From Escherichia coli (GTDB lineage: Bacteria; Pseudomonadota; Gammaproteobacteria; Enterobacterales; Enterobacteriaceae): 64,000 bases of DNA. Where the stretch lies: the NCBI RefSeq assembly GCF_003790525.1, contig NZ_CP033635.1; one strand, 5' to 3'. Below are positions 6,899 through 28,150 of this stretch, piece after piece. The position numbers and the translations under genes were made by a program. Position 1 is the first letter of the stretch; each line of letters begins with the position of its first letter. The notes beneath the pieces were generated by a model. It was not told the DNA's origin. It saw only the letters and a program-made list of their open reading frames with translations, and did no database searches.

Positions 6899-7675
6899 TT
6901 ATTCTTCAGTTTTTTCGCTTTCTGCTTCAGCGTCGTTTTCCTCTTCCCGGTTTCGACCCTTACCAACGTAAAAGCGAGAGAAGAAGACACCGATTTCAAA
7001 CAGGCAGTACATCGGGATCGCCAGCAGCGTTTGCGAGAAGACATCCGGCGGCGTCAGCAACATCCCGACAACGAATGCACCAACCAGCACATACGGGCGT
7101 TTTTTGCGTAAGTCTTCTGGCGAGGTAATCCCCATCCAGCACAGCAGCACAATTGCCACAGGCACTTCAAAGGAGACACCAAACGCCATAAACAACGCCA
7201 TAACGAAGCTTAAATAGCTGGCGATGTCGGTGGATACCTGTACCCCTTCCGGCGCGGTATTGGCAAGGAAGCCAAATGCCAGCGGAAAGACCACAAAGTA
7301 GGCGAACGCCATGCCGATATAAAAAAGCAGAGAGCTGGAAACCAGCAGCGGCACCACCAGGCGACGTTCATGCTTATACAGCGCTGGGGCGATAAACGCC
7401 CACACCTGATAGAGAATCACCGGCGCTGACAGAATCAGCGACACCATAAAGGTCAGCTTGATCGGCGTAAAGAACGGCGAGGCCACGTCGGTGGCGATCA
7501 TCGTTGAACCTTGCGGCAACTGCTTGATCAATGGCGCGGATACCAGGTGATAGATGTCATTGGCGAAATAGACCAGACACAGGAATATCACGATCACCGC
7601 GATAATGCAGTTCAGCAGACGCTTACGCAGCTCAATCAGATGCGTGATAAGCGGTTGAGTATCTTCTACAGACAT
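6899..7675 (-). CDS. tatC: Twin-arginine translocase subunit TatC
   Basis: 258-aa polytopic membrane protein starting [21 protein letters not shown]. Confidence 0.97.
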
Positions 7676-7677
7676 GT

Positions 7678-8193
7678 TTACGGTTTATCACTCGACGAAG
7701 GGGAAGGTGCAGCGGTTTTCGGTTCAGCGTCCGCAGCAGGTTTTACCACCGGCTCTGGCGTGGTTTCTGGCTTCTGTTCCGGCGAACTGGCCTGCGTTTG
7801 TGCAGCGGCAGGCGTTACGCCTTCATGCGCAGCTTCATTGTCTTTCACCACCGGGTTATGGATGGTGTGCGCTTCATCGCTCGCCTTTTCAGGATCGTTT
7901 GCAACGTAGGAACGCTTCATCGACTCCGCGGCCTGGCGTAATTCATCCATCGACGCTTTCAGTTCGGGTGTCAGGTTAGTGAGGCTCGCCTTTTCAACCT
8001 TTTTCAGACTGTCCTGAAACTCCTGGAGTTTTAACTCCTGGGTCAGTTCGTTCTGCACCGTTGTCGCCAGTGAACGCAACGCGCGAATCCAGCCCGCGAC
8101 CGTTTTTACCGCCACAGGCAGTCGTTGCGGCCCCAGAACGACGAGGCCGATGATGAATACCAATAGCAGTTCGCTAAAACCGATATCAAACAC
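7678..8193 (-). CDS. tatB: Twin-arginine translocase subunit TatB
   Basis: 171 aa starting [26 protein letters not shown]. Sits 2 nt upstream of the tatC start. Confidence 0.97.
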
Positions 8194-8196
8194 GGA

Positions 8197-8466
8197 TTAC
8201 ACCTGCTCTTTATCGTGGCGCTTCGCGTCTTGTGTTTTAGCCTGTTCCTGATTCGTATCCGCCTGCTTATCGGCGATAGTTTTCGCAGTAAAATCAGCAT
8301 CCTGACTGGTTTTATCCTGCTTTGGTTCATCATCGCTCATTGCTTTTTTAAAGCCTTTGATCGACGCACCAAGATCGGAACCGATGGAGCCGAGCTTTTT
8401 GGTGCCAAAAAGCAGTACAACGATGACGGCAATAATCAATAACTGCCAAATACTGATACCACCCAT
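8197..8466 (-). CDS. tatA: Twin-arginine translocase subunit TatA
   Basis: The ORF-track entry (103 aa) over-extends. The Met at 8466 gives the 89-aa [27 protein letters not shown]... TatA. Confidence 0.95.
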
Positions 8467-8544
8467 ACATGTTCCTCTGTGGTAGATGATGATTAAACAA
8501 GGCCGCATTATACGTTACACAGCCCGCCTTGAGCGATGAAAAAA

Positions 8545-10787
<2,243 letters not shown>

Positions 10788-10800
10788 TTCCGGTCTCCTG

Positions 10801-11556
10801 TCAGAACTTATAACCACGATGCAACGCCACAACCCCTGCCGTCAGATTGTAGTAGTCGACACTTTCGAATCCGGCATCCTGCATCATGGCTTTCAGGGTA
10901 TCCTGATCGGGATGCATACGGATGGATTCTGCCAGATAACGGTAGCTGTCGGCGTCGTTCGCGACCAGTGAGCCAATACGCGGCAGCACATGGAAGGAGT
11001 ATGCATCATAGGCTTTGCTCAGCGGCTCGATAATTGGCTTCGAGAACTCAAGCACCAGCAGGCGGCCGCCGGGTTTCAGCACGCGATACATTGAACGCAG
11101 TGCTTTATCTTTGTCGGTGACGTTACGCAGACCAAACGAAATGGTGATGCAATCAAAGGTGTTATCCGGGAACGGCAGCGCCTCAGCGTTCGCTTGAACA
11201 TACTCAACGTTGCCAATCACACCGATATTACGCAGCTTCTCGCGTCCCATTTTGAGCATGGATTCATTGATATCAGCAAGGACCACTTTGCCAGTTTCTC
11301 CGACCAGGCGGGAGAATTTCGCTGTCAGGTCGCCGGTGCCACCAGCCAGATCCAGCACGGTCTGCCCACGGCGTACGCCGCTGCAATCAATCGTGAATCG
11401 CTTCCACAAACGATGAATACCGAATGACATCAAATCATTCATGACATCGTATTTTGATGCCACGGAATGGAAAACGTGAGCGACCATATCCGCTTTTTGT
11501 TCCTTCGCGACGGTCTGAAAACCAAAGTGCGTCGTTTCTTGTGACTTATCCACCAT
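10801..11556 (-). CDS. ubiE: Demethylmenaquinone / C-methyltransferase UbiE
   Basis: 251 aa with the SAM-binding motif [10 protein letters not shown]. Matches E. coli UbiE. Confidence 0.97.
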
Positions 11557-11650
11557 CTCAATGCCTGCTCATCAAAAAATTGTTCCAGAAGTGTAACAGA
11601 TTGGGCGTCGATGCCCTAGATTTCTACCCGGCTTAACTACCCCCAATGGG

Positions 11651-13078
11651 CTAGCGCGACTGCTGATTATATTCATCATCGCGTTGATAAGCTTCATCAT
11701 TCGGCTGCTCCGGAACCGACCGCAGTCGATACTCTTCATCCTGGCTCACCGCTTGTTCAGCCAAATCCGGATTAATCTCGCGTTTAATTTCTACCCCTAA
11801 ACCGCGAAACGCTTCTGCCTGCGCCAGCACATTTCCGCGACCTGAAGAGAGTTTTTTCATTGCCTGGCGGTAGTTATCCTGCGCTTTGTCGAGACTTTGA
11901 CCAATCGCTGACATGTCATCGACGAACAAACGCATCTTGTCGTACAGCTTGCTGGCACGATCGGCGATTTGCTGGGCGTTGCGGCTTTGATGCTCATAAC
12001 GCCACAGGTTGGCGATAGTGCGCAGCGCCACCAGCAGCGTAGTCGGGCTAACCAGCATGATATTGTTTTTCAACGCTTCGGTGATCAGCTCCGGCTGGCG
12101 GTCAAGCGCCAGTAAAAAAGCGGGTTCAACGGGAATAAACATCAGAACGTAATCCAGGGTTCGCAGCCCCGGCAGCTGTTGATAATCTTTGCGTCCCAGC
12201 AAACGGATATGGTTACGCACCGACGCGATATGTTCCTGTAGCGCGCTTTCGCGGGTGTAGTCATCTTCGGCGTTGAAATAGCGTTCATAGGCGACCAGCG
12301 TCATTTTGGCGTCGATCACCACATCTTTTCCCTGCGGCAACCGCACGATGACATCCGGCTGCATCCGCGAGCGGGCGTCATTTTCGATGCTGACCTGGGT
12401 TTCATATTCATACCCTTCACGCAGACCGGAAGCCTCCAGCACCCGCGTCAATACTACCTCGCCCCAGTTGCCCTGGGTTTTATTGTCGCCTTTCAGCGCA
12501 CGCGTCAGGTTGATCGCTTCCTGGGCCATCTGGGCGTTGAGTTGCTGGAGGTTGCGGATTTCGTGAGTCAGGGTATGACGTTCTTGGGCTTCTTTACCAA
12601 AGCTGTCCTGGACCTGACGGCGGAAACCGTCCAGTTGTTCACGTAGCGGCGACAACAGGCTGTTCAGGCTCTGACGGTTTTGCTCATCAACCCGGCGATT
12701 GCTGTGCTCAAAAATACGGTTGGCGAGGTTTTCAAACTGCTCACTGAGGCGCTGCTCGCTGTTAATCATCTGGCGAATTTTATCGTCAGCATGTTGCTGT
12801 GCAGCTTCCATCCGCGTGGTTACTTCACGCAGATCGGCCTCCAGAGAGGTGTTAATACTTTGCAGGCTGCGCACTTCGTTATTGAGTAACTCGCACTCAG
12901 CGCGCCAGTGCTCGCTTTGAGTAATTTGTTGTTTTGCCGCGCTTAACTCCGCGACCATCTCTTCACGTTCAGCTAATTGCTCGGCTTTTTGCTGCGCATG
13001 TTGATAACTGGCAAACAGCCAGCCAATTGCCACACCCACCAATGCAATAACTGCGTAAACCATGATTGAGAAATCCAC
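11651..13078 (-). CDS. rmuC: DNA recombination protein RmuC
   Basis: 475 aa with an N-terminal TM segment, a long coiled-coil region and the RmuC C-terminal domain. Matches K-12 YigN/RmuC as I recall it. Confidence 0.95.
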   Translation of the reverse strand: MDFSIMVYAVIALVGVAIGWLFASYQHAQQKAEQLAEREEMVAELSAAKQQITQSEHWRAECELLNNEVRSLQSINTSLEADLREVTTRMEAAQQHADDKIRQMINSEQRLSEQFENLANRIFEHSNRRVDEQNRQSLNSLLSPLREQLDGFRRQVQDSFGKEAQERHTLTHEIRNLQQLNAQMAQEAINLTRALKGDNKTQGNWGEVVLTRVLEASGLREGYEYETQVSIENDARSRMQPDVIVRLPQGKDVVIDAKMTLVAYERYFNAEDDYTRESALQEHIASVRNHIRLLGRKDYQQLPGLRTLDYVLMFIPVEPAFLLALDRQPELITEALKNNIMLVSPTTLLVALRTIANLWRYEHQSRNAQQIADRASKLYDKMRLFVDDMSAIGQSLDKAQDNYRQAMKKLSSGRGNVLAQAEAFRGLGVEIKREINPDLAEQAVSQDEEYRLRSVPEQPNDEAYQRDDEYNQQSR

Positions 13079-13196
13079 AACGCCTCCTGACGCAACAACT
13101 TACCCGCACAAAATAGAATTGTGCTGTACAAACGTCCAGTTTGAAAGAAGTTTCCTGCGAGGCGCTACGCAAAACGATCGTTAATTTTCATTATTT

Positions 13197-13234
13197 TATC
13201 CCACAATATGAGATGGAGTTTATATTGTGGGATA
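13197..13234. promoter_or_regulatory. 13-bp perfect inverted repeat, candidate IclR-type operator
   Basis: TATCCCACAATAT (13197-13209), then a 12-nt spacer, then ATATTGTGGGATA (13222-13234). It lies about 60 nt upstream of the IclR-family start codon. A degenerate third half-site, TTATGTGGAAC, sits near 13258. Confidence 0.55.
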
Positions 13235-13294
13235 TATCACCTTTTCCCCACGTCATTATGTGGAACACTTCAGCAATATCATCAGGAGAAACGT

Positions 13295-14062
13295 ATGGCA
13301 GAAACCTCTTCAACCACCGCAGGCGCACAAACGTTATTACGTGGACTGGCGGTTCTTAATGCTGTTTATAACGGCTGCCATGACCTAAAAAGTATCGGCG
13401 AGTTCACCGGCACGACCCGGAGCACAACCCATCGTTTAGTCACCGTTCTGGTGGAACAACGCTACCTGCGCCATGTCCCAACGCAGGGCTACCAACTGGG
13501 TGCCAAACTGATCGAATTCGGTGCCAGAGCACTGGAAAGCACCTCGCTGTACGAAATTGCCCAGCCCGTTTTGCAACGCCTTGCCCGTTACACCCTGGAC
13601 ACCGTGCATCTGGGGATCGTTGAAGGCGACGAAGTGCTGTATCTGGAGAAGATCAACAGTCAGCGCGGGCTGGAAATGCGCTCACGCCCAGGCCATCGCA
13701 TGCCACTGGCAATCACCGGCATCGGCAAAGCATTGATACTCAACCGAACAGAAGAAGAGTGGCGCACGCTGTTTAAGACCTGTGGTGATGAAACAAAACT
13801 GGGCGCATTTATTCAGAACATGCGTCGTTATGCCGCCAGTGGTTTTGCTTTTGATCTGGAAGAGAACGAGCCGACTATCCGTTGCGTTGCAGCGCCGGTT
13901 TACAACGCCCGGGATGAAATTGTGGCGGCTATTTCTGTCGCCAGTACCACCACGTATATGTCGCTGGCGCGTCTGGAAGAACTGGCACCTTACGTCAAAT
14001 CCTGTGCAGAAGAGATATCCGCTGAACTGGGCTGGGGTAAGCACGTCCGCAAAGATAAATAA
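13295..14062 (+). CDS. IclR-family transcriptional regulator (KdgR-like)
   Basis: The ATG at 13295 is preceded by AGGAGA (13284-13289), giving 255 aa. It has an N-terminal wHTH (GAQTLLRGLAVLNAV...IGEFTGTTRSTTHRLV) and a C-terminal IclR effector domain. The ORF-track start at 13208 would run through the operator. Confidence 0.85.
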   Translation: MAETSSTTAGAQTLLRGLAVLNAVYNGCHDLKSIGEFTGTTRSTTHRLVTVLVEQRYLRHVPTQGYQLGAKLIEFGARALESTSLYEIAQPVLQRLARYTLDTVHLGIVEGDEVLYLEKINSQRGLEMRSRPGHRMPLAITGIGKALILNRTEEEWRTLFKTCGDETKLGAFIQNMRRYAASGFAFDLEENEPTIRCVAAPVYNARDEIVAAISVASTTTYMSLARLEELAPYVKSCAEEISAELGWGKHVRKDK

Positions 14063-14085
14063 ACCATGATTAAAGGAAACGACTA

Positions 14086-15090
14086 ATGCCGGGAGCACCC
14101 TCATTTATTGCCCTGGACTGGGGAACGTCATCGCTTCGGGCATGGCGTTTTGGCGAATCACCAAATCCACAAGAAAAACGTGAATTCCCCTGGGGGATCA
14201 TGAAATTACCCTCCCAGGCAGCAACACGTGAGGACGCTTTCCACGATACGTTTTTACGTGTCTGCGGCGACTGGCTGGCACAAACCCCATGCCCGGTACT
14301 GGCTTGCGGCATGCTCGGCAGTGCGCAAGGGTGGCAACCAGCAGCTTATTTACCTTGCCCGGTCACTCTCGAGGGTCTGGCGAAGCAGTTGACGCCAGTT
14401 ATCCACCAGCAGCAGACAATGCTGCACATCATTCCTGGCGTGATTAAAGAAGGTGAAATGCCCGAAGTGATGCGTGGCGAAGAGACACAAATCTTCGGTG
14501 CTATCTCGATGGAACCGGCCCTGCAAAACGCGATCCATCAGGGTATGCCAGTGCTGATAGGCTTACCCGGCACACATGCGAAATGGGCAGTAGTTGAAAA
14601 CAACACCATTACCGATTTCCGAACCTTTATGACGGGCGAGTTATTTGATGTTTTATCCCGCCATTCGATTCTCGGTGCCACCATGCATCCTGGAGATGAA
14701 CCGCACTGGGATGCCTTCACCCACGGGCTGACAGCAGCACAAGAGCATCATCAGACCGGATTATTATCGACGCTGTTTTCGACCCGTTCGCGCCTGCTGA
14801 CCAGTAATCTTACGTCGTCCTCGCAGGGGGATTACCTTTCCGGATTACTGATAGGCCATGAATTATGCGGTCTGGCATCCAGTTTGCTACGTGATTTACC
14901 CGCCACAACACCGATCGCCTTAATCGGTAGCGCAAATCTGAACAGCCGCTATTCACAAGCATTCAGCCACGTTTTTCCCGACAGACAGATACACGCCATT
15001 CCTAATGCCACTGAACAGGGATTATGGCGAATCGCCCACGCTGCCGGGTTACTGTCCACCAACGCCAGGGAATGTACCCATGCCATTTAA
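14086..15090 (+). CDS. 2-dehydro-3-deoxygalactonokinase-family (DgoK-like) sugar-acid kinase
   Basis: 334 aa. The N-terminal FIALDWGTSSLRAW matches the DgoK phosphate-1 motif (IAIDWGSTNLRAW in E. coli DgoK as I recall). It starts 23 nt after the regulator gene. Confidence 0.8.
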   Translation: MPGAPSFIALDWGTSSLRAWRFGESPNPQEKREFPWGIMKLPSQAATREDAFHDTFLRVCGDWLAQTPCPVLACGMLGSAQGWQPAAYLPCPVTLEGLAKQLTPVIHQQQTMLHIIPGVIKEGEMPEVMRGEETQIFGAISMEPALQNAIHQGMPVLIGLPGTHAKWAVVENNTITDFRTFMTGELFDVLSRHSILGATMHPGDEPHWDAFTHGLTAAQEHHQTGLLSTLFSTRSRLLTSNLTSSSQGDYLSGLLIGHELCGLASSLLRDLPATTPIALIGSANLNSRYSQAFSHVFPDRQIHAIPNATEQGLWRIAHAAGLLSTNARECTHAI

Positions 15091-15709
15091 GACGCTTTTG
15101 CAAAAAACCGGGTTAGTCGCCATTTTACGCGGCGTGAAACCGGATGAGATTGTCGCCATCGGTGAAAAACTGTACGCCGCCGGATTCCGCCTGATTGAGA
15201 TTCCTATGAACTCGCCGGAGGCGTTGCAAAGTATCAGTTTACTGCGCGACGCCCTGCCTAAGGATTGCCTGGTCGGAGCCGGAACTGTGCTTTCGGTAGA
15301 GCAGGTGGTTGCGGTTAAAGAGGCTGGGGGCCAGATTATCGTGATGCCGCATTGCGATACTGCGGTGATCCGTCGCGCCCGTGCGCTGGGTATGTATTGT
15401 GCGCCTGGCGTCGCCACGCCCACCGAAGCCTTTGCTGCCATTGAACATGGTGCTAATGCCATCAAGCTGTTCCCGGCTGAACAAATTACGCCAGAAGTTA
15501 CCAAAGCCTGGCGTGCGGTTATTCCACAATCCGTTCCGATGTTACCGGTTGGCGGTATCACACCGGAAACCATGGCGCGTTATCTGAGCCACGGCGCAAA
15601 CGGCTTTGGCCTCGGTTCTGCGCTATATCACCCCGGCATGACGCCAGAGCAAGTCTATGAAAATGCAGTACTGTTTATGAACGCATGGAACAATTTAAAT
15701 AGCAACTAA
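15080..15709 (+). CDS. 2-dehydro-3-deoxy-6-phosphogalactonate (KDPGal) / KDPG-type aldolase, DgoA/Eda family
   Basis: The ATG at 15080 overlaps the kinase stop (15088-15090) by 11 nt. 209 aa reading MPFKTLLQKTGLVAILRGVKPDEIVAIGEKLYAAGFRLIEIPMNSPEAL, with KLFPA and PVGGI motifs typical of class I KDPG/KDPGal aldolases. Confidence 0.85.
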   Translation: MPFKTLLQKTGLVAILRGVKPDEIVAIGEKLYAAGFRLIEIPMNSPEALQSISLLRDALPKDCLVGAGTVLSVEQVVAVKEAGGQIIVMPHCDTAVIRRARALGMYCAPGVATPTEAFAAIEHGANAIKLFPAEQITPEVTKAWRAVIPQSVPMLPVGGITPETMARYLSHGANGFGLGSALYHPGMTPEQVYENAVLFMNAWNNLNSN

Positions 15710-15733
15710 CTGATAAATAAGGATATAAAAGCA

Positions 15734-16708
15734 ATGATAAAACATCTTACCTTACCGAAAAAAATGGCTGCAATGGTACTTCTTGCAGGCGCTGCCCTCA
15801 GCATTGCGCCTGTACAGGCAGCCTCCTACCCAACCAAACAGATCGAGTTAGTCGTTCCCTACGCTGCCGGAGGCGGTACGGATCTGGTTGCCCGTGCCTT
15901 TGCTGATGCCGCCAAAAACCATTTACCCGTCAGCATCGGGGTTATCAATAAACCTGGCGGAGGCGGTGCTATCGGCCTGAGTGAAATCGCCGCTGCCCGC
16001 CCTGGCGGTTACAAAATTGGTTTAGGCACGGTTGAACTGACCACCCTTCCCAGCCTCGGAATGGTGCGTTTTAAAACCAGCGATTTTAAACCCATTGCCC
16101 GTCTAAACGCGGATCCGGCTGCTATCACCGTCCGTTCTGATGCGCCGTGGAATAGCTATGAAGAATTTATGACTTACGCCAAAGCGAATCCCGGAAAAGT
16201 ACGCATTGGTAACTCAGGCACCGGAGCTATCTGGCATCTGGCGGCAGCTGCACTGGAAGACAAAACGGGTGCGAAGTTTTCTCATGTCCCGTATGACGGC
16301 GCAGCCCCTGCCATTACAGGCCTGTTAGGCGGGCATATTGAAGCGGTTTCCGTAAGCCCAGGAGAAGTTATCAACCATGTGAAAGGCGGCAAGCTGAAGA
16401 CACTGGTAGTGATGGCGGATGAGCGAATGAAAACCATGCCTGACGTCCCGACGTTAAAAGAGAAAGGCGTTGATCTCTCCATCGGCACCTGGCGCGGCCT
16501 GATTGTGTCGCAAAAAACGCCGCAGGATGTGGTGGATGTTCTGGCAAAGGCAGCAAAAGAGACGGCTGAAGAGCCTGCATTCCAGGATGCACTGCAAAAG
16601 TTGAATCTCAACTATGCATGGCTTGACGCTGCCAGCTTCCAGACCCAAATCAGCGAACAGGAAAAGTACTTTGACGAGTTGCTGACTCGCCTGGGCCTGA
16701 AAAAATAA
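15734..16708 (+). CDS. Tripartite tricarboxylate transporter substrate-binding protein (TctC/Bug family)
   Basis: 324 aa with a Sec signal peptide (…LSIAPVQA|AS). The PYAAGGGTDLVAR motif is characteristic of Bug/TctC periplasmic receptors. Confidence 0.88.
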   Translation: MIKHLTLPKKMAAMVLLAGAALSIAPVQAASYPTKQIELVVPYAAGGGTDLVARAFADAAKNHLPVSIGVINKPGGGGAIGLSEIAAARPGGYKIGLGTVELTTLPSLGMVRFKTSDFKPIARLNADPAAITVRSDAPWNSYEEFMTYAKANPGKVRIGNSGTGAIWHLAAAALEDKTGAKFSHVPYDGAAPAITGLLGGHIEAVSVSPGEVINHVKGGKLKTLVVMADERMKTMPDVPTLKEKGVDLSIGTWRGLIVSQKTPQDVVDVLAKAAKETAEEPAFQDALQKLNLNYAWLDAASFQTQISEQEKYFDELLTRLGLKK

Positions 16709-16724
16709 ACCTGAGGTACGGTTG

Positions 16725-17231
16725 ATGAACACAAAACAGTCTGTTGCTCAACTCGCCGTACCGCACCGCAAGCGCCTTTCATCAACGATGGTGGTGGCGC
16801 TGTTACTTTGTGTGGTTGCTGGCGCGGTGATGATTAATGCCGCTGATTTTCCAGCAACTGCCATTGAAACGGATCCCGGTGCAAGTGCCTTCCCTACCTT
16901 CTATGCCTGTGCCCTGATTGTGCTCGCTGTCTTGCTGGTGATACGCGATCTTTTGCAGGCAAAACCAGCCTCTTGCGCCAACGCACAGGAAAAACCGGCA
17001 TTCAGGAAAACGGCAACAGGAATTGCGGCAACCGCGTTTTATATTGTGACGATGAGCTACTGCGGTTATCTCATTACTACTCCTGTTTTCCTCATCGTCA
17101 TTATGACGTTGATGGGCTACAGGCGATGGGTACTCACACCGGGTATTGCGCTGCTGTTAACGGCAATCCTCTGGTTGCTGTTTGTCGAAGCGTTACAGGT
17201 GCCATTGCCTGTCGGCACATTTTTCGAATAA
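16725..17231 (+). CDS. Tripartite tricarboxylate transporter small membrane subunit (TctB family)
   Basis: About 168 aa with 4 predicted TM helices, sitting between the TctC- and TctA-type genes. The ORF track starts at TTG 16722; the adjacent ATG at 16725 is more likely. Confidence 0.75.
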   Translation: MNTKQSVAQLAVPHRKRLSSTMVVALLLCVVAGAVMINAADFPATAIETDPGASAFPTFYACALIVLAVLLVIRDLLQAKPASCANAQEKPAFRKTATGIAATAFYIVTMSYCGYLITTPVFLIVIMTLMGYRRWVLTPGIALLLTAILWLLFVEALQVPLPVGTFFE

Positions 17232-17243
17232 CAGGGGCCAGCA

Positions 17244-18734
17244 ATGTTTGAAAGTGAACTTTTAACTCAGGGTTTTTCGACATTACTCAATAATCCTCAG
17301 GCGCTGCTGTTTGCCACTTTTGGGGTGATGCTGGGTATTGTGATTGGCGCTTTGCCTGGTCTGACAGCGACCATGGGTGTGGCGATTTTGCTGCCTTTCA
17401 CCTACGGCATGGAGCCTGTTTCTGGCTTGTTGATGATTTGCGGCGTCTTTTTTGGTGGCGTCTACGGTGGTTCTATCACCGCAATTTTGCTCAAAATTCC
17501 CGGAACGCCTGCCGCCGCAGCCACCGCTATTGATGGTTATGAGCTGACGAAACAGGGAAAAGCAGGGCTGGCATTGAGTGCCGCCACGTTCTCTTCCTTT
17601 AGTGGCGGAACGCTCAGCATTATCGTGCTGATGTTTCTCTCTCCGGTACTTGCCAGTTGGGCGCTGAAATTTAGTGCCTCGGAGTCCTTCGCCCTGGCAA
17701 CCTTCGGACTGAGCATTATTGCCAGTATTTCCGGTGAGTCACTGATTAAAGGGCTGATTGCCGGGGTTGGCGGATTGCTGATCGCAACGATAGGCCTTGA
17801 TCCAATGGGCGGTTTTCCACGGTTTACAGGTGGATTTGTGGAGCTGATGAATGTGCCATTTATCCCGGTGATGATTGGTTTATTTGCTGCTTCAGAAGCA
17901 TTCCGCTCTATGGAGCAAAACCAGCAAATTCGTCAGGGGGCGAAGGTGGCTATCGGCAGTCTGTTACTGCCCTGGCAAACACTACGCCGCATTGCATTAA
18001 CCATTTTGCGCTCATCAGGATTAGGGGTTTTTATCGGCATGATCCCCGGTGCGGGGGCGGATATTGCAGCTTTTGTTGCCTATAACGAAACTCGTCGTTT
18101 CAGTAAGACACCAGAAAACTTTGGTAAGGGTGAAATTAAAGCTGTGGCCTCCTGTGAGGCAGGCGCGAATGGCTGCACCGGTGGCGCATTGTTACCTATG
18201 CTGACGCTGGGGATCCCTGGCGATGCGGTAACCGCCATCATGCTGGGCGCGTTAACGTTACAGGGAATGCAACCAGGCCCGCTGATGTTTACCGACCACG
18301 GCGATATGGTTTATACACTGTTTGTCGGCATGATCTTCTGTTACTTCATGCTACTAGTTCTTGGACTGCTCTCTTTGAAAGTCATCGGTAATGTGGTGAA
18401 AATTCCCGGCAATATTCTCACACCGATGATCCTCGCACTTTGTGTGGTCGGGACTTATGCGTTGAACAATAGCCTGTTTGATGTTGGCATTATGCTGATT
18501 GCAGGCGTGGTGGGCTATTTCATGCAGAAAGGAGGATATCCGGCATCACCCGTAGTGCTGGCATTGATTATGGGGCCAATGGCGGAAAGTAATTTTCGCC
18601 GTGCGCTGTCGCTTTCTGGTGGGTCACTCGACTTTCTGTATACCCGACCGATAACTCTGGCATTGCTGACTCTGGCAGCCTTTACGCTACTGACGCCAAT
18701 AATCCGCAAAATAATGCGTTTACGGCGTCAATAA
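17244..18734 (+). CDS. Tripartite tricarboxylate transporter large permease (TctA family)
   Basis: 496-aa polytopic membrane protein with the GALPGLTATMGVAILLPFT and GIPGDAVTA motifs typical of TctA. Confidence 0.88.
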   Translation: MFESELLTQGFSTLLNNPQALLFATFGVMLGIVIGALPGLTATMGVAILLPFTYGMEPVSGLLMICGVFFGGVYGGSITAILLKIPGTPAAAATAIDGYELTKQGKAGLALSAATFSSFSGGTLSIIVLMFLSPVLASWALKFSASESFALATFGLSIIASISGESLIKGLIAGVGGLLIATIGLDPMGGFPRFTGGFVELMNVPFIPVMIGLFAASEAFRSMEQNQQIRQGAKVAIGSLLLPWQTLRRIALTILRSSGLGVFIGMIPGAGADIAAFVAYNETRRFSKTPENFGKGEIKAVASCEAGANGCTGGALLPMLTLGIPGDAVTAIMLGALTLQGMQPGPLMFTDHGDMVYTLFVGMIFCYFMLLVLGLLSLKVIGNVVKIPGNILTPMILALCVVGTYALNNSLFDVGIMLIAGVVGYFMQKGGYPASPVVLALIMGPMAESNFRRALSLSGGSLDFLYTRPITLALLTLAAFTLLTPIIRKIMRLRRQ

Positions 18735-18741
18735 CTGATAT

Positions 18742-18769
18742 CGCTCCCCGAAGTTGGGGAGCGTTTTTT
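18742..18769 (+). terminator. Rho-independent terminator of the TTT operon, overlapping the udp stop codon
   Basis: Stem CGCTCCCC (18742-18749) / GGGGAGCG (18756-18763) with a 6-nt loop, then TTTTTT (18764-18769). Confidence 0.8.
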
Positions 18770-19532
18770 ATTTCAGCAGACGACGCGCCGCTTCCACCAC
18801 GATTTTCACCGCATGGCTTTCGGTTTGTTTCATCGTCTCAGCATTCGGGATCTCTTGCTGGGTGCGGTTAACGATAACCCCCGCTACCATACCGGCACGC
18901 AGGCCCTGACTTGCACACATGGTCAGCAGGGTTGCAGATTCCATTTCATAGTTCATTACGCCCATCGCCTGCCACTCTTCCATAGAACCTTTAAAGTGAC
19001 GAACTACGCGACCAGAGTAAGTATCGTAACGTTCCTGACCCGGGTAGAAGGTATCAGAAGAAGCCGTCACACCAACGTGAGTGGTGGCACCAATTGACTT
19101 CGCCGCTTCAACCAGCGCAGTCGTACATTCGAAATCAGCGACAGCCGGGAATTCCAGCGGTGCGAAGTGCAGGCTCGCACCATCCAGACGAACAGACGCC
19201 GTGGTAACCAGGACATCGCCAACATTAATATGCGGCTGAATAGCGCCTGTTGTGCCGATACGCAGGAAGGTGCGAATGCCCAGCTGTGCCAGCTCTTCAA
19301 CAGCAATAGAGGTAGACGGGCCGCCGATACCGGTAGAGCAGACGATAACAGGTTTACCATCCAGCTCTGCACGCCAGGTGGTGAATTCGCGATGAGATGC
19401 CAGCTTAACCGGCTTATCCATCAGCGCGGCGATCTTTTCCACACGATCCGGGTCGCCAGGGACGATGGCAAGCGTAGCCCCTTGTAAATCGTTTTTAGTG
19501 AGGCCGAGATGAAAAACATCAGACTTGGACAT
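18768..19532 (-). CDS. udp: Uridine phosphorylase Udp
   Basis: [28 protein letters not shown]... The Met at 19532 gives 254 aa ending ...AARRLLK. I recall K-12 Udp as 253 aa. Confidence 0.96.
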
Positions 19533-20859: not shown

Positions 20860-21528
20860 ATGACGCAATCCATTTTTCAGGCTCAACCCTTTGAATTACC
20901 TTTTGATCCGCGCACAACTGCACTGGTCATGATCGACATGCAGCGTGACTTTGTCGAAGCAGGGGGCTTCGGTGAGGCACTGGGCAATGATGTTTCACTG
21001 GTACGCACGGCTATCGCACCATGTACAGAGGTGCTGGCAGCCGCACGTCAAAAAGGAATTATGGTTATTCATACTCGTGAAGGCCATCGTGCAGACTTAA
21101 GCGACTGCCCGCCAGCCAAACTGACGCGCGGCGGAAAAACCTTTATTGGTGAACCAGGACCGATGGGACGCATTCTGGTCAGAGGTGAAGCAGGTCATGA
21201 CATCATTCCTGAACTGTACCCGGTGGCAGGCGAACCGGTGATTGATAAGCCTGGCAAAGGCGCGTTTTATCAAACCGACTTACATCTGATTTTGCAAAAC
21301 CACGGTATCAAGACGCTGATAGTTTGTGGTGTTACAACCGAAGTTTGCGTAACCACCACCGTGCGCGAAGCAAATGATCGTGGCTATGAATGCATTATCC
21401 CGGAAGATTGTGTCGGCTCCTATTTCCCGGAATTCCAGAAATACGCCCTCGAGATGATCAAAGCACAAGGTGCCATTTTCGGTTGGGTTACTGATTCCAA
21501 AGCCATTATTGCAGGCCTGGAAGGCTAA
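20860..21528 (+). CDS. Isochorismatase-like cysteine amidohydrolase (RutB / biuret-hydrolase / N-carbamoylsarcosine-amidase type)
   Basis: 222 aa. The catalytic triad context is present: ALVMIDMQRDF (Asp), KPGKGAF (Lys), LIVCGVTTEVCV (Cys). The C-terminal GAIFGWVTD resembles the RutB FFGWVSD. AGGAG lies 8 nt upstream. Confidence 0.85.
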   Translation: MTQSIFQAQPFELPFDPRTTALVMIDMQRDFVEAGGFGEALGNDVSLVRTAIAPCTEVLAAARQKGIMVIHTREGHRADLSDCPPAKLTRGGKTFIGEPGPMGRILVRGEAGHDIIPELYPVAGEPVIDKPGKGAFYQTDLHLILQNHGIKTLIVCGVTTEVCVTTTVREANDRGYECIIPEDCVGSYFPEFQKYALEMIKAQGAIFGWVTDSKAIIAGLEG

Positions 21529-21533
21529 CACCG

Positions 21534-22394
21534 ATGGTACAGGTTACGCTTTGCGCATCGTCGTTGGGATATCTTTTCCCGCAGAATGAAACGCAAGATT
21601 TACGTCTACATAGCGCTTTTAAACATGCGGTAAATCTGTATTCAGACGCGGGAACATTCATCACTCTGTTGTGTGCGCAAACGTATCTGAATCTCCCTGA
21701 TGCAGCCAGAGTCTGGCTACCTGAATGTTGGGACTGGCGAAGAGAGATTGCCCATTCAGATCCCATTCAGTTAACCCCAGGCTTACTGCGGACACCTCGA
21801 TTTTGTGTGGCGCTCGAAAACGCAACGCTCTGGCAGTCGCCATTTGTGGGGGGAATGCTGACACTTGAGGCATTCCCTTTGGTTTTCCAGCACTACCCAA
21901 CGATGGCATCGCAACGGCTTTTATTTTGTCTGGAACATAACGTTCAAAGCACATTGCACCTGCCGGATAGTCTCACGCACCAGGGATTAGCGATTATGGA
22001 GCATCCAGATGCGCTGGAACGCCAGGTGCCACAACTGATCGGCTTTGGTAAAGGCTTAACGCCCGATGGAGATGACTATTTGTTGGGCTATCTGGCAGCA
22101 CTCTGGTTATGGCAACTCCCTGCACCACTTGCCGATCATCAATACCGGTTGCAGCAGGTAATTGATCAACATGCGCACAACACCACGGATATCAGTCGTC
22201 ATTATCTGGAGCGTGCGCTTCAGGGACATTTTTCAGAACCGATTTGCCAGTTACTCGCACAACTGGTTGGGAGTGCATCGGCAATGACAATCGCATCCTG
22301 TGCAGAACAGGTCATGCAATTTGGCGCAACGTCAGGAGTAGATTGCCTTGCAGGAATGCTGCATGGCTTTCGAACCCTGAACACCATAAATTGA
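21534..22394 (+). CDS. DUF2877-family protein (YlbF-like)
   Basis: 286 aa with the GKGLTPDGDDYLLGYLAAL and TTDISRHYL motifs I associate with YlbF/DUF2877. It starts 5 nt after the hydrolase stop. Confidence 0.75.
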   Translation: MVQVTLCASSLGYLFPQNETQDLRLHSAFKHAVNLYSDAGTFITLLCAQTYLNLPDAARVWLPECWDWRREIAHSDPIQLTPGLLRTPRFCVALENATLWQSPFVGGMLTLEAFPLVFQHYPTMASQRLLFCLEHNVQSTLHLPDSLTHQGLAIMEHPDALERQVPQLIGFGKGLTPDGDDYLLGYLAALWLWQLPAPLADHQYRLQQVIDQHAHNTTDISRHYLERALQGHFSEPICQLLAQLVGSASAMTIASCAEQVMQFGATSGVDCLAGMLHGFRTLNTIN

Positions 22395-22488
22395 TTTCAA
22401 CCTTTTCTCCCGTAGCCCGTTTATGGGGCTACACGGGGATGCTTTGCCCGAATTTTGCTATCGGGCGGAATGAAACAGGCGTAACAGC

Positions 22489-24048
22489 ATGAAAGTTAAA
22501 TATAAAGTTTTCAGTAATCTTTATCAGGACTCAGTTTCTCTGATGCAGATTTCCGCGCAAATCAGCAAGTTGCCCGGTATTCAACAGGCCTCGGTCGTCA
22601 TGGGAACACCCAATAATCTCGAGCAATTGAGCGATGCGGGTCTGGGTAACGAAATCAACGCCAGTCCCAATGATTTAGTGATTGCAGTCATGGGTGAAGA
22701 AGATATTTGCAATGAAGCACTGGTACTGGCCCAGCAACGTCTGACCAGCAAACCCGATGATGAAACGGATAGTGGCATTAAAACACCGGAAAAGGTCAGC
22801 CTGGAAATGGCACTGGAAGCCGAGCCCGAAGCCAACCTGGCACTCATTTCTGTACCGGGAGACTACGCCGCCGCCGAAGCAATTAAAGCGTTAAACCTCG
22901 GAATGAACGTGATGATGTTCAGCGATAACGTCAGTATCGTGCAGGAAAAATCCATCAAAACGCTTGCCCGAGAACGTCAGCGCATCGTAATGGGACCTGA
23001 CTGTGGAACCGCCATTGTTAACGGCATTCCGTTAGGCTTCGCTAATGTGGTGAAACGCGGAGCAATTGGTGTTATTGGCGCGTCAGGCACCGGGCTACAG
23101 GAAGTGACTTGCCGAATCGACCAGCTCGGAGCGGGTATTTCTCAGGCGTTGGGAACAGGCGGACATGATCTCAGTGAAGAGATTGGTGGAATATCGATGC
23201 TCTTCGCTTTAGATGCGCTGGCGCAAGACGATGAAACTCGCGTGATTGTGCTTATTTCAAAACCGCCTTCACCGATCGTTGCCCGGACTATTCTGGAGCG
23301 TGCCGAGGCTTGTGGAAAACCCGTGGTGGTGAATTTCCTCGGTGCGAATCCGCATGATCTGGCACGTCCCAATATCACCGCGGCCACCACACTTGCCAGC
23401 GCCGCAAATATCGCCGTGGCGTTACTGAATGATCAACCACTTCCGACTATCGAGACCGAAATTTCCTGCGACGATCTCACAATGTTACAAAACGCCTGCC
23501 AGCGCCTGCCAGCCCATCGCCAGGCGATACGCGGTGTTTTCGCCGGAGGAACCTTCTGCTACGAAGCGCAACTTATCTGCCAACAAAAGGGATTCAGCGC
23601 AGCCTCCAATACGCCAGTTGCGGGTAATCGTGCTCTGGCAAATATCTGGCAAAGCGAAGATCACACGTTGATCGATATGGGCGACGATGATTTCACCCGT
23701 GGCAAACCGCATCCAATGATCGACCCGACTCTGCGCAATCAACGTCTGCTCAACGAACTCAACGACTCACACACTGCCGTCGTGTTATTCGACCTGGTAC
23801 TTGGTTATGGCGCTTCCACGACGCCTGCCAGCGAATTACTGGACCAACTTTCACACATCGACATGAATAACGCACCGTTGCTGATTGCGCACGTTTGCGG
23901 AACGGAAGCTGATCCGCAAATACGCAGTCAGCAGATAAGCGCACTACAAAATGCAGGGGTCATCATCGCCAGCAGCAATGCACAGGCGGCGTTATGGGCC
24001 AGCACCGTTGCACAGACTCAGTTGCAGAAAAAGGGGCTAAACGCATGA
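22489..24048 (+). CDS. FdrA-family protein (succinyl-CoA-synthetase-alpha-like, CoA-ligase fold)
   Basis: 519 aa with long collinear similarity to my recollection of E. coli FdrA: QDSVSLMQIS, NVMMFSDNV, MGPDCGT, IGVIGASGTGLQE, GDDDFTRGKPHPMIDPTLRNQ. Confidence 0.88.
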   Translation: MKVKYKVFSNLYQDSVSLMQISAQISKLPGIQQASVVMGTPNNLEQLSDAGLGNEINASPNDLVIAVMGEEDICNEALVLAQQRLTSKPDDETDSGIKTPEKVSLEMALEAEPEANLALISVPGDYAAAEAIKALNLGMNVMMFSDNVSIVQEKSIKTLARERQRIVMGPDCGTAIVNGIPLGFANVVKRGAIGVIGASGTGLQEVTCRIDQLGAGISQALGTGGHDLSEEIGGISMLFALDALAQDDETRVIVLISKPPSPIVARTILERAEACGKPVVVNFLGANPHDLARPNITAATTLASAANIAVALLNDQPLPTIETEISCDDLTMLQNACQRLPAHRQAIRGVFAGGTFCYEAQLICQQKGFSAASNTPVAGNRALANIWQSEDHTLIDMGDDDFTRGKPHPMIDPTLRNQRLLNELNDSHTAVVLFDLVLGYGASTTPASELLDQLSHIDMNNAPLLIAHVCGTEADPQIRSQQISALQNAGVIIASSNAQAALWASTVAQTQLQKKGLNA

Positions 24049-25469
24049 ATACCTTATTTAATCAGCCTTTGAAGGTTGTGAACGCGGGACTACACAGTTT
24101 TGCTGACAATATTCAACATGCCGGGGGAAGCGCAATTGCACTCAACTGGCAGCCACCAGCACAAGGCGATATTGACGCTGGATTGGATCTGGCATCGTTG
24201 CTACGTCATCCCCTGGTAGAAAATGCCAACCAAATCGCCATGACACGTTATCTCGAAGCACAGCCCGTGCTGGTGGATGTCATGCTCGCTAAAGAGGCCA
24301 TTCCAGAAATGGCTGAACAAAAACGTATTTTGCACTCTGGCCCGCCGATTGCCTGGGAAGAGATGTGTGGTCCGGTAAAAGGGGCGATTATTGGTGCCAT
24401 GCTGTACGAAGGTTGGGCCACCAGCCAGCAAGACGCTGAAAACCAAATAAACGCAGGCGAAATCGACCTTGCCCCTTGTCATCATTATCACGCGGTTGGC
24501 CCAATGGCAGGCATCATCAGCCCGTCGATGCCGTTATGGGTGGTAGAAAACAAAACCAACGGCCACCGTACTTTTAGCAATTTCAATGAAGGTCTGGGTA
24601 AGGTTCTCCGTTTTGGCGCCAATAACGATGAAGTTCTCAATCGTCTGGCCTGGATGCGCGATGAACTGGCGCCGGCAATGAAAGCAGCAATCGCACAACA
24701 CGGCGAGCTGGAACTCAAGCCATTAATGGCGCAGGCGCTGCATATGGGGGATGAAGTTCATAACCGCAATGCTGCCGCTACCGGTTTGCTGATTAAGCGC
24801 CTGCTCCCGGCATTGCTGGCCTGCTCTCTTCCACAGGAACATATCCAGCGCGTCGTGGCATTTATCACCGGTAACGATCACTTCTTCCTCAATCTTTCGA
24901 TGGCCGCCTGTAAAGCAATGATGGATGCCGCCGCCAATGTACCGTTCAGTTCAATGGTTACGGTGATGGCGCGTAACGGGGTGAATTTTGGTATTCGGCT
25001 TTCCGGTACTGGCGATCGCTGGTTCCAGGCTCCTGCCAATGCCGTTGAAGGTCTGTTCTTCCCCGGATTTGGCGTCGACGATGCCGCTGCTGACCTGGGT
25101 GATAGCGCAATTACTGAAACCGCAGGTGTGGGTGGCTTCGCGATGGCGTCGTCTCCGGCGATCGTCAAATTTGTGGGAGGCACCCCTGCCGATGCCACCA
25201 ATAACAGCCGTCGGATGCAAGCCGTCACCCTCGGCGGTAACCCCGCATTTACACTTCCAGCCCTCAATTTTGCCCCCACCGCAGCAGGGATTGATGCGCG
25301 TAAAGTGACCGATCGCGGCATTTTACCGGTCATCAATACGGGTATCGCCCACAAACAAGCGGGGGTCGGGCAAATTGGTGCCGGGATCACCACTGCGCCG
25401 ATGGCCTGTTTTGTCGCCGCTGTACGTGCACTGGCGGAGATCGTCGCAAAGGAGAACCATCATGGTTAA
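24045..25469 (+). CDS. DUF1116-family protein (YlbE-like)
   Basis: The ATG at 24045 overlaps the FdrA-like TGA (an ATGA junction), giving about 474 aa starting MNTLFNQPLKVVNAGL... It is the conserved partner of FdrA in fdrA-ylbE-ylbF-ybcF clusters. The ORF-track start at 23994 is probably an over-extension. Confidence 0.78.
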   Translation: MNTLFNQPLKVVNAGLHSFADNIQHAGGSAIALNWQPPAQGDIDAGLDLASLLRHPLVENANQIAMTRYLEAQPVLVDVMLAKEAIPEMAEQKRILHSGPPIAWEEMCGPVKGAIIGAMLYEGWATSQQDAENQINAGEIDLAPCHHYHAVGPMAGIISPSMPLWVVENKTNGHRTFSNFNEGLGKVLRFGANNDEVLNRLAWMRDELAPAMKAAIAQHGELELKPLMAQALHMGDEVHNRNAAATGLLIKRLLPALLACSLPQEHIQRVVAFITGNDHFFLNLSMAACKAMMDAAANVPFSSMVTVMARNGVNFGIRLSGTGDRWFQAPANAVEGLFFPGFGVDDAAADLGDSAITETAGVGGFAMASSPAIVKFVGGTPADATNNSRRMQAVTLGGNPAFTLPALNFAPTAAGIDARKVTDRGILPVINTGIAHKQAGVGQIGAGITTAPMACFVAAVRALAEIVAKENHHG

Positions 25470-26418
25470 GCCACTGGCTGTCGTCGCGGTTGGCGGCAAT
25501 GCGCTCATTCAGGACGAGCAACGCAATAGTATTCCCGATCAATATGTTGCAGTGATGGAAAGCGTGCAGCATATCGTTGATATGGTTGAAGCCGGATGGG
25601 ACCTGGTGCTAACCCACGGTAATGGCCCGCAGGTGGGCTTTATTCTGCGCCGCTCTGAACTCGCCAGTAACGAAGTTTCTCCGGTTCCACTTGATTACGC
25701 CGTGGGTGATACACAAGGTGCAATTGGCTACATGTTCCAGAAAGCACTGCATAACGAATTGGCTCGCCGTGGCATAAACAAACCGGTAATTGCCCTGGTG
25801 ACACAAACGCGAGTCAGCCCACATGACGATGCTTTCGCCAGCCCCAGTAAACCAATTGGCGCGTTTCTCGATGAAGCAACGGCCCAACAACGCCAACAAC
25901 AACTCGGCTGGACGCTGATGGAGGACGCCGGGCGTGGTTGGCGGCGTACAGTTCCCTCTCCTGCCCCACTGGAAGTTATTGAGCACGACACCATCGCTCA
26001 CCTGGTGCGCCAGGGATATCTGGTTATTGCCTGCGGCGGCGGCGGTATTCCGGTGGTGCGAGACGGACAACAACTGAAAGGTGTAGAAGCCGTGATCGAT
26101 AAAGATCTGGCCTCCGCGCTGCTCGCCAGTCAGTTAGGCGCAGATCTGCTGGTGATCCCCACCGGTGTAGAAAAAGTGGCGATTAACTTTGGTACACCAC
26201 AACAACAGTGGCTCGACGCTATCAGCGTTGCCGAAGCGCAAACGCTGTTGCGGGAAGGTCAGTTTGGTGTCGGCAGTATGCAACCCAAAGTGGAAGCCAT
26301 TGTTGATTTCATCAATGCCAGCCAGCAACAAGGCAAACAGGCCAGCGGCCTGATTACTTCACCGCAAACCATAAAAGCAGCCCTGGCGCATCAGAGCGGT
26401 ACATGGATAACCCTTTAA
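25462..26418 (+). CDS. Carbamate kinase
   Basis: The ATG at 25462 follows GGAGA (25451-25455) and overlaps the upstream stop by 8 nt, giving 318 aa. Carries AVVAVGGNAL and THGNGPQVG, the carbamate-kinase signature motifs, plus CGGGGIPV. Confidence 0.92.
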   Translation: MVKPLAVVAVGGNALIQDEQRNSIPDQYVAVMESVQHIVDMVEAGWDLVLTHGNGPQVGFILRRSELASNEVSPVPLDYAVGDTQGAIGYMFQKALHNELARRGINKPVIALVTQTRVSPHDDAFASPSKPIGAFLDEATAQQRQQQLGWTLMEDAGRGWRRTVPSPAPLEVIEHDTIAHLVRQGYLVIACGGGGIPVVRDGQQLKGVEAVIDKDLASALLASQLGADLLVIPTGVEKVAINFGTPQQQWLDAISVAEAQTLLREGQFGVGSMQPKVEAIVDFINASQQQGKQASGLITSPQTIKAALAHQSGTWITL

Positions 26419-26434
26419 TTCTCTGGAGAACACA

Positions 26435-26824
26435 ATGACTACAACGCTTTTAGCCGTTAACGGAACGCTGATGCGCGGCCTGGAACTCAACCCAAATATG
26501 CAAAAAGCGGGCGGTATTTTTGTCCGTGAAGACCGAACTGACGCCCATTACCGGTTGTGGAGTATTAATGATCGCCATCCGGGAATGATTCGCGTGAATG
26601 AAGGAGGAACACACGTCGACGTAGAAATTTGGCAATTACCGCTGGCCAGTTTTGCCGCTCTGTTAATGAGCGAACCCGCTGGGCTGGCAATTGGCAAAAT
26701 CAAACTTGCCGATGGTAGCGAAGTGCTGGGCGTACTGGCAGAAAACTGGCTGACCGAAGGCCAACGGGAAATTACAGAACTGGGTAGCTGGCGCAAATAC
26801 ACCGGGCATTTTCATACTGTGTAA
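26435..26824 (+). CDS. Stand-alone allophanate-hydrolase C-terminal-like / gamma-glutamylcyclotransferase-fold domain protein
   Basis: 129 aa. LAVNGTLMRGLELN...YRLW...PGMIRV..GG..VDVEIWQLP...F..L....P.GLAIGKIKLADGSEVLGVL...ELGSWRKY parallels the C-terminal domain of allophanate hydrolases (from memory). No amidase-signature domain is present. Confidence 0.6.
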   Translation: MTTTLLAVNGTLMRGLELNPNMQKAGGIFVREDRTDAHYRLWSINDRHPGMIRVNEGGTHVDVEIWQLPLASFAALLMSEPAGLAIGKIKLADGSEVLGVLAENWLTEGQREITELGSWRKYTGHFHTV

Positions 26825-26849
26825 CGCGCATTTATAAAGGGAACATACT

Positions 26850-28073: not shown

Positions 28074-28101
28074 TTCCTGGGTATACTCAGGCAATGATTA
28101 C

Positions 28102-28125
28102 GGCTGAATCTGGAGAGATTCAGCC
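28102..28125 (+). other. 10-bp perfect stem-loop between the permease and LysR genes
   Basis: GGCTGAATCT (28102-28111), loop GGAG, AGATTCAGCC (28116-28125). Only a weak U-tract (ACTTTACC) follows. It ends 25 nt before the LysR ATG. Confidence 0.5.
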
Positions 28126-28150
28126 ACTTTACCACTGACCAGGAAGCCTT

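Follow-up and report, generated by a model that had tools for sequence, protein, structure and literature searches.

What does Escherichia coli take up with an operon that encodes a sugar-acid kinase, an aldolase and a binding-protein-dependent transporter, and no dehydratase? The question is raised by positions 13079-18767 of a 64,000-nucleotide stretch of E. coli DNA (contig NZ_CP033635.1, here called the window), where six genes lie between rmuC and udp in a region with 100 % identity to E. coli SMS-3-5 (NC_010498.1). The answer that we prefer, with a confidence that is about even, is that this block is a self-contained, substrate-inducible operon which scavenges a pre-formed 2-keto-3-deoxy-hexonate, most likely 2-keto-3-deoxy-D-galactonate (D-KDGal).

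As we picture it, the periplasmic TctC-type protein would bind the free keto-deoxy acid, and TctB and TctA would carry it through the inner membrane by secondary transport. The DGOK-family kinase would phosphorylate the acid at C6, and the DgoA-like Schiff-base aldolase would split the product into pyruvate and D-glyceraldehyde-3-phosphate. The IclR-family protein would keep the operon repressed from an inverted repeat at 13197-13234, and binding of the acid or its phosphate would lift the repression, with a CRP-like site adding catabolite control; ligand, effector, operator and transport energetics are in each case what we infer. A dehydratase would be unnecessary because the substrate is already dehydrated. 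Since the core dgoRKADT operon reportedly responds to D-galactonate rather than to KDGal, the retention of a separate kinase and aldolase would also be understandable.

The kinase, the aldolase and the systems they resemble

The six genes and their flanks are as follows.

11651-13078, minus strand: rmuC, left flank
13295-14062, plus strand: IclR-family regulator of 255 aa (WP_000852398.1), first gene of the operon; Pfam IclR_C (E-value in the 1e-38 range) and HTH_IclR
14086-15090, plus strand: DGOK-family sugar-acid kinase of 334 aa, paralogue of the core DgoK; Pfam DGOK, 298.3 bits
15080-15709, plus strand: 2-keto-3-deoxy-6-phosphogalactonate (KDPGal)-type class I aldolase of 209 aa, paralogue of the core DgoA; NCBIfam PRK09140
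15734-16708, plus strand: TctC/Bug-type periplasmic solute-binding protein of 324 aa; Pfam TctC, 186 bits; N-terminal signal-like sequence ending in VQA
16725-17231, plus strand: TctB small membrane subunit; Pfam TctB, 77 bits; RefSeq start, alternative TTG at 16722
17244-18734, plus strand: TctA large membrane subunit of 496 aa; Pfam TctA, 506 bits
18768-19538, minus strand: udp, right flank

The open reading frame (ORF) listing and the RefSeq annotation concur on these six co-directional genes, opposite in strand to both flanks, and bear out the gene order of the initial annotation. As had been stated, 11 nt (15080-15090) are common to the kinase and aldolase genes, and the remaining gaps of 23, 24, 13 and 12 nt make the earlier range of 13-25 nt essentially right (12-24 nt measured). 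The gap between TctC and TctB becomes 16 nt instead of 13 nt if the RefSeq ATG at 16725 is used, and for the regulator a longer ORF starts at 13208, compared with the RefSeq start at 13295. Three consecutive genes match PF03401 (186 bits), PF07331 (77 bits) and PF01970 (506 bits), the gene trio of a tripartite tricarboxylate transporter (TTT).

The DGOK and KDPG/KDPGal aldolase families named for the two enzymes were put to profile searches and upheld. The kinase matches DGOK with 298.3 bits against a cut-off of 25, over profile positions 1-281 of 281; it is homologous to PDB entries 3R1X and 3T69, keeps the motifs DWGTS..LR and PGTHxKW, and was matched by no NCBIfam equivalog model. The aldolase, which also matches the Pfam KDPG/KHG aldolase family, scores 320.1 bits on PRK09140 (KDPGal aldolase, cut-off 207), and its highest score on an Eda model is 135.8 bits (cut-off 156). 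Alignment with 2V81 and the core DgoA showed no substitution at Arg14, Glu37, the Schiff-base Lys126 or Val154, in the numbering of E. coli DgoA. The column of DgoA residue 154 holds Thr in E. coli Eda and Val in both the block aldolase and E. coli DgoA, and this residue reportedly contributes to galacto-versus-gluco stereoselectivity. Membership of the DGOK family, together with Val at this position, leads us to assign kinase and aldolase to the D-galacto type on the basis of sequence. The core dgoRKADT operon is likewise present and intact in SMS-3-5, approximately 155 kb distant; identity to these same-genome copies is 34 % for the kinase with DgoK and 46 % for the aldolase with DgoA, and the block enzymes appear as old paralogues of the core copies and not as recent duplicates.

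The dgoRKADT operon of E. coli resembles the block in having a DGOK kinase gene followed by an overlapping gene for a KDPGal-type aldolase, along with a regulator and a transporter, and the catalytic residues of the two aldolases are identical, the Val154 position included. A classical dgo operon, however, has DgoD in the cluster along with a GntR-type DgoR and the major facilitator superfamily (MFS) permease DgoT, and the block departs from it on each of these points: the enolase-superfamily dehydratase DgoD is missing from 13079-18767, the regulator is of IclR type and uptake is by a binding-protein-dependent TTT.

Units for keto-deoxy acids that have no dehydratase are known in kdgRKAT of Bacillus subtilis and in the KdgR regulon of E. 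coli (kdgT, kdgK, eda). The block shares with kdgRKAT and with the KdgR regulon (kdgT-kdgK-eda, in E. coli and Dickeya) the combination of regulator, transporter, kinase and aldolase; IclR is the family of enterobacterial KdgR, and relatives of the block's binding protein adjoin KdgT and PfkB kinases. It differs in having DGOK and not PfkB, a galacto-type and not an Eda-type aldolase, and a TTT in place of KdgT, and its regulator lies under the KdgR equivalog cut-off. KdgR-type repressors had been cited for comparison, and the profile scores do not favour such an assignment: the regulator falls under every NCBIfam equivalog cut-off, with 129.7 bits on the KdgR model (cut-off 275) and slightly more, 142.7 bits, on BhcR (cut-off 350), and reads as a generic IclR-family member. 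An aldarate, also suggested earlier as the substrate, is unlikely in view of the C6 kinase. Work on K-12 transport of KDG (2-keto-3-deoxy-gluconate) is cited in PMC11219438.

Relatives of the binding protein and the imported molecule

Homologues of the binding protein are abundant, and 80 loci from species-representative genomes were compared along with seven more with precomputed gene calls; in high-GC loci ORFs were called using a filter on GC content at third codon positions (GC3). Metakosakonia, Pseudocitrobacter and Klebsiella indica have the same six genes, again at this position beside udp. The intact six-gene unit also stands elsewhere in the genome, between unrelated flanks, in Brenneria, Enterobacter hormaechei, Rhodoferax, two Rhodocyclaceae, several Azospirillum, an Acetobacteraceae strain and a metagenome-assembled genome of Moraxellaceae. 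The dehydratase that the initial annotation had found missing from the block is likewise not linked to the module in any of approximately 20 intact homologues, which come from alpha-, beta- and gammaproteobacteria, and a tblastn search with the same-genome DgoD matched 3 of 88 loci, in no case adjoining the module.

In a neighbour-joining tree, 20 of the 21 loci in the clade of the E. coli binding protein carry DGOK, and every aldolase recovered from this clade has Val at the DgoA-154 position. Modules in the sister clade (Brevibacillus, Fictibacillus; 60-65 % identical) and in further clades (Bacillaceae, Sphaerochaeta) have the form IclR-TTT-PfkB-aldolase, and no dehydratase was found in those of Bacillaceae, Brevibacillus, Fictibacillus and Sphaerochaeta. 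The PfkB kinases of these modules match best to KDG/KDGal kinase models, and the Bacillaceae aldolases have Thr at the DgoA-154 position. A deeper clade of binding proteins is linked to aldolases of the dihydrodipicolinate synthase (DHDPS) family and to Dak1/Dak2 kinases. At nine Paenibacillus loci, an orphan TctC-type binding protein lies between a Cache-AraC membrane regulator of approximately 780 aa and a KdgT permease, which looks like a binding-protein-dependent sensor governing keto-deoxy-gluconate uptake.

Judged by these gene neighbourhoods, the binding-protein family as a whole appears to be associated with 2-keto-3-deoxy acid metabolism, and the E. coli clade to be paired with galacto-type enzymes. 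Because its relatives, at 40-65 % identity, are wired to genes for PfkB kinases, KDPG-type aldolases and KdgT, the best reading of the imported molecule is that it is already a 2-keto-3-deoxy acid, as was first proposed. A narrower version, which we put forward only tentatively and with less than even confidence, would make the TctC-type receptor a high-affinity sensor and uptake protein for free D-KDGal, or for another keto-deoxy monocarboxylic sugar acid, coming from other microbes. The orphan Paenibacillus proteins are 45-48 % identical to that of E. coli (L048, L051, L052, L054, L057, L058, L062, L065 and L066, at approximately 7300-12000).

The best PDB matches of the binding protein are 4X9T from Polaromonas (E = 3e-99) and 25HK, the TTT-C protein of Vibrio sp. 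C42 (E = 7e-64). The Vibrio protein is the nearest homologue with a characterised ligand, and its gene belongs to an alginate utilisation locus. It binds unsaturated alginate oligosaccharides whose terminal sugar is a 4-deoxy unsaturated uronate, and citrate, glucuronate and malate are not bound (PMC13390454). Residues matching the Vibrio contact residues Gly24, Thr25, Asp26, Pro104, Gly183, Thr225 and Arg227 are kept in the E. coli protein, whereas Ser164 and Glu165 are replaced by Ala-Pro and the E. coli clade carries an invariant GNSGTGAIWH loop with 3 extra residues, which suggests a related but smaller pocket. The 4-deoxy unsaturated uronate may itself resemble the ring form of a 2-keto-3-deoxy acid.

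That ligand also fits a different account of the operon, in which the enzymes would be less epimer-specific than their names imply and the substrate would be gluco-configured KDG, both C4 epimers, or a 4-deoxy-5-keto-uronate from polysaccharide-degrading neighbours. The sister-clade binding proteins with their PfkB KDG-kinase-like genes and Thr-type aldolases agree with it, as do the short-chain dehydrogenase/reductase (SDR) and cupin genes directly upstream in Fictibacillus, which occur in unsaturated-uronate pathways, and the divergent SDR beside the Rhodoferax and Azospirillum modules. The E. coli module, however, is without SDR, cupin and KduI, its kinase is DGOK and not PfkB, and its aldolase lies above the KDPGal model cut-off with Val as in DgoA and not Thr as in Eda. 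For the gluco route E. coli is already equipped with KdgT, KdgK, Eda, KduI and KduD, and the separate clade of DGOK-linked binding proteins suggests a shift of ligand. On these grounds we consider a gluco or uronate substrate quite unlikely. The uronate or polysaccharide source given in the initial annotation meets the same objection, since known chemistry gives gluco-configured KDG or L-KDGal and the enzymes here are of the predicted D-galacto type: L-threo and L-erythro 4-deoxy-5-hexosulose uronates lead to L-KDGal and KDG, respectively. A direct reduction of unsaturated uronate to D-KDGal was also considered, and rejected on stereochemical reasoning.

The Fictibacillus locus is of interest in its own right. 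In F. norfolkensis (L024, 8558-15300) an SDR gene and a gene for a 159-aa cupin stand directly 5' of TctC-TctB-TctA, and TctA is followed by a GntR-like gene (named from sequence alone) and then by genes for a PfkB kinase and an aldolase, an arrangement that recalls unsaturated-uronate pathways with KdgF and DEH reductase.

Among the 25 most frequent Pfam families shown for 82 neighbouring genes, SDRs (6 genes) were the sole enzyme family that recurred. The recurrent SDR is mostly divergent from the regulator gene, and for Rhodoferax and Azospirillum NCBIfam gives only a generic SDR. In these two a classical SDR lies divergently beside the module (L004, 6512-7288; L015, 6383-7159), and in Rhodoferax an SMP-30/gluconolactonase-like gene follows tctA (L004, 13184-14098). 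At one Azospirillum locus a DgoD-like gene is found approximately 6 kb away.

These neighbours bear on a second alternative, D-galactonate scavenging, in which the TTT would import D-galactonate, the core DgoD (or another dehydratase) would convert it to KDGal, and the block kinase and aldolase would add capacity to the lower pathway. The Rhodoferax SDR and SGL-type lactonase are consistent with conversion of galactose to galactonate, the Azospirillum gene with a dehydratase at no great distance, and the intact dgoRKADT of SMS-3-5 with a supply of KDGal from the core. Uptake of this kind was predicted by Leyn et al. (2017) for an IclR(GalR)-dgoK-TTT cluster of Salinivirga fredricksonii HL-109 (PMC5507952). 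By the paper's description this cluster shares with the block an IclR regulator, dgoK and a TTT, and likewise has no galactose dehydrogenase or lactonase; the prediction is purely genomic, and it differs from ours in assigning D-galactonate as the substrate. Against such a scheme, a classical dgoD adjoins dgoK and dgoA, whereas no dehydratase was seen in the approximately 20 intact modules of three proteobacterial classes, and the relatives of the binding protein go with KDG-type kinases and KdgT and not with aldonate dehydratases. Imported D-galactonate would moreover induce the core dgoK and dgoA and leave the paralogues redundant, yet they are intact in approximately 1,450 genomes. We regard D-galactonate as the foremost of the alternatives, although a rather unlikely one.

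Uptake of pre-formed D-KDGal remains the reading that we prefer, and several points weigh against it. To our knowledge, free D-KDGal has no well-documented environmental source, and on stereochemical reasoning the known extracellular keto-deoxy acids from pectin, alginate and glycosaminoglycans are gluco-configured KDG. The intact core dgoD of SMS-3-5 could supply the missing step, and the SDR and SMP-30-type lactonase that flank the Rhodoferax module look like the upper De Ley-Doudoroff steps which yield galactonate. The 4X9T structure is an apo form without ligand, its ligand being entered as 'unknown' in a 2018 review, and no measured ligand was found for any member of the binding-protein clade. 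A consensus scan gave no sigma-70-like plus strand promoter 5' of the regulator gene. To these is added the assignment of a similar IclR-dgoK-TTT cluster to D-galactonate uptake by genomic reconstruction (PMC5507952).

Transcription signals and boundaries of the block

The signals around the operon, and the left edge of the extra DNA, are as follows.

13079-13174, no strand: part of the rmuC-udp spacer common to K-12, left edge of the extra DNA; 96 nt, approximately 96 % identity in genomes without the block
13197-13234, plus strand: perfect 13-nt inverted repeat TATCCCACAATAT-N12-ATATTGTGGGATA, from a repeat search; candidate IclR operator
13226-13241, plus strand: CRP-like site TGTGG-N6-TCACC, as read from the letters; candidate for catabolite control
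18742-18773 (hairpin 18742-18763), plus strand: intrinsic terminator with a 9-bp stem, 7 GC pairs, then TTTTTTATTT; best terminator-like site in the region

The promoter placed earlier at 13.2 kb was not confirmed, and what is present there is an operator-like repeat and a CRP-like site. The arms of the repeat, at 13197-13209 and 13222-13234, lie 5' of the regulator gene. In the orthologous promoters of Metakosakonia, Pseudocitrobacter, K. indica and E. hormaechei the surroundings have diverged, but the motif TCCCAC-ATAT..GGGAT / TTATATTGTGGGAT has been retained. A lone CRP-like site is not statistically significant, and TGTGn-N6-TCAnn occurs at the equivalent position in five of five enterobacterial orthologous promoters. 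The sole strong terminator-like site sits directly 3' of tctA, and a scan of 12900-19000 against Rfam gave no match at E <= 0.1. This terminator and the tight packing of the genes agree with the single-operon layout proposed at the outset, and because of the terminator and the conserved upstream repeat and CRP-like element, a single autoregulated, catabolite-controlled transcript is plausible.

In a derivative of MG1655 the spacer between rmuC and udp is 140 bp long, which agrees with the reported absence of the block from K-12. Its first 96 nt (13079-13174) are common to the window, and on alignment its last approximately 44 nt, with the udp terminator hairpin, are replaced here by approximately 5.6 kb. 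The tctA terminator occupies the place of that hairpin.

The block had been described as an island, which overstates its mobility, because the features expected of mobile DNA are missing from it and other genera share the site. Profile searches and the RefSeq annotation gave no integrase, transposase or tRNA within the block, alignment with the K-12 spacer gave no direct repeats flanking the junctions, and the GC content of 0.47-0.56 is similar to that of the flanks; a mobile genomic island would be expected to have a mobility gene, a site flanked by a tRNA or repeats, or atypical composition. Between E. coli and the three site-sharing genera the block proteins are 50-90 % identical and the flanking core proteins 72-96 %. 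The data are compatible either with ancient residence and repeated loss, or with exchange by recombination through the flanks.

Two of the enterobacterial loci show further details. In Metakosakonia massiliensis (L003, 6546-7591) the module lies between ubiE and udp, with approximately 290 bp from ubiE to the regulator gene, and rmuC was not called. E. hormaechei has a divergent second DGOK-family gene and an Fe-dependent alcohol dehydrogenase gene (L005, 5079-7258), and a second IclR gene downstream of the module (L005, 13239-14003).

The right boundary also touches udp. In carriers the tctA terminator contains the udp stop codon within its T-tract, and an extra C-terminal Lys brings Udp to 254 aa, as against 253. 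As the K-12 udp terminator hairpin AAGGCCGAACGCGTCGGCCTT is absent from block-carrying strains, udp transcripts may run antisense into tctA in carriers.

Distribution in E. coli and significance

The survey across E. coli that the initial annotation had called for was carried out over 5,426 complete genomes, with carriage defined by at least 80 % of the block or by blastn with tctA, and with the strain-level breakdown made for named reference strains. The block (at least 80 %) is present in 1,452 of these genomes, approximately 27 %. tctA was matched in 1,456, nearly all carriers having a copy at least 98 % identical, and blastn with tctA gave no match in the remaining complete genomes; the statement that K-12 lacks TTT transporters agrees with this at DNA-level sensitivity. 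Strains of O25b:H4-ST131 and LF82 are among the carriers, and so are uropathogens. CFT073 has the block at the same site, as c4774-c4779, and so has the laboratory expression host BL21(DE3) (NZ_CP053602.1, 3919886-3925325), with six intact genes and tctA 99.8 % identical.

The carriage data are relevant to a third possibility, that the block survives in E. coli as a cryptic or decaying remnant and plays no role there at present. K-12 and approximately 73 % of complete genomes manage without it, a consensus promoter was not found, no phenotype is reported in the literature that we found, and the paper on a BL21(DE3) metabolic model is silent on the operon. All six ORFs are nevertheless intact in SMS-3-5, CFT073 and BL21(DE3), tctA is conserved at the level given above in its 1,456 carriers, the catalytic residues are kept and the promoter motifs are conserved across genera. 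We consider a remnant very improbable.

Part of this picture was already known. The RefSeq family names are correct, the genes of CFT073 were listed in 2010 and a similar module was predicted in 2017. The 2010 comparison of 20 genomes placed c4774-c4779 inside a 21-gene 'Entner-Doudoroff pathway' set, reported as common to F11, 536 and UTI89 (PMC2831201). Beyond the supplement of that comparison, searches for the tags c4774-c4779 returned only unrelated papers, and literature searches combining TTT with KDG, galactonate, fitness and BL21 did not turn up any experimental study of the operon or of its binding protein's clade.

Should a free keto-deoxy sugar acid prove to be the ligand, it would be a nutrient by which approximately one in four E. 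coli strains differ from K-12; CFT073, ST131, LF82 and B strains of the BL21/REL606 type are among the carriers. It would point to a cross-feeding niche new for E. coli and restricted to B strains and to lineages rich in extraintestinal pathogenic E. coli (ExPEC), and genome-scale metabolic models of BL21 and ExPEC strains would be corrected. It would also be the first ligand to be defined in a large clade of TTT binding proteins that spans phyla, in whose close part the apo structure 4X9T is the only solved member. BL21(DE3), which has the block, and K-12, which does not, form a ready-made strain pair. If the substrate is instead D-galactonate, the block would be a redundant transporter variant of minor interest.

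The window holds another block absent from K-12, at 20860-29047 between ysgA and metE. Its genes encode a cysteine hydrolase, a DUF2877 protein, FdrA, a DUF1116 protein, a carbamate kinase, an allophanate-hydrolase-related protein, a cytosine permease and a LysR regulator. This block is also found in CFT073 and BL21(DE3), the CFT073 copy adding hxlB-ptsG-tkt-rpiR.

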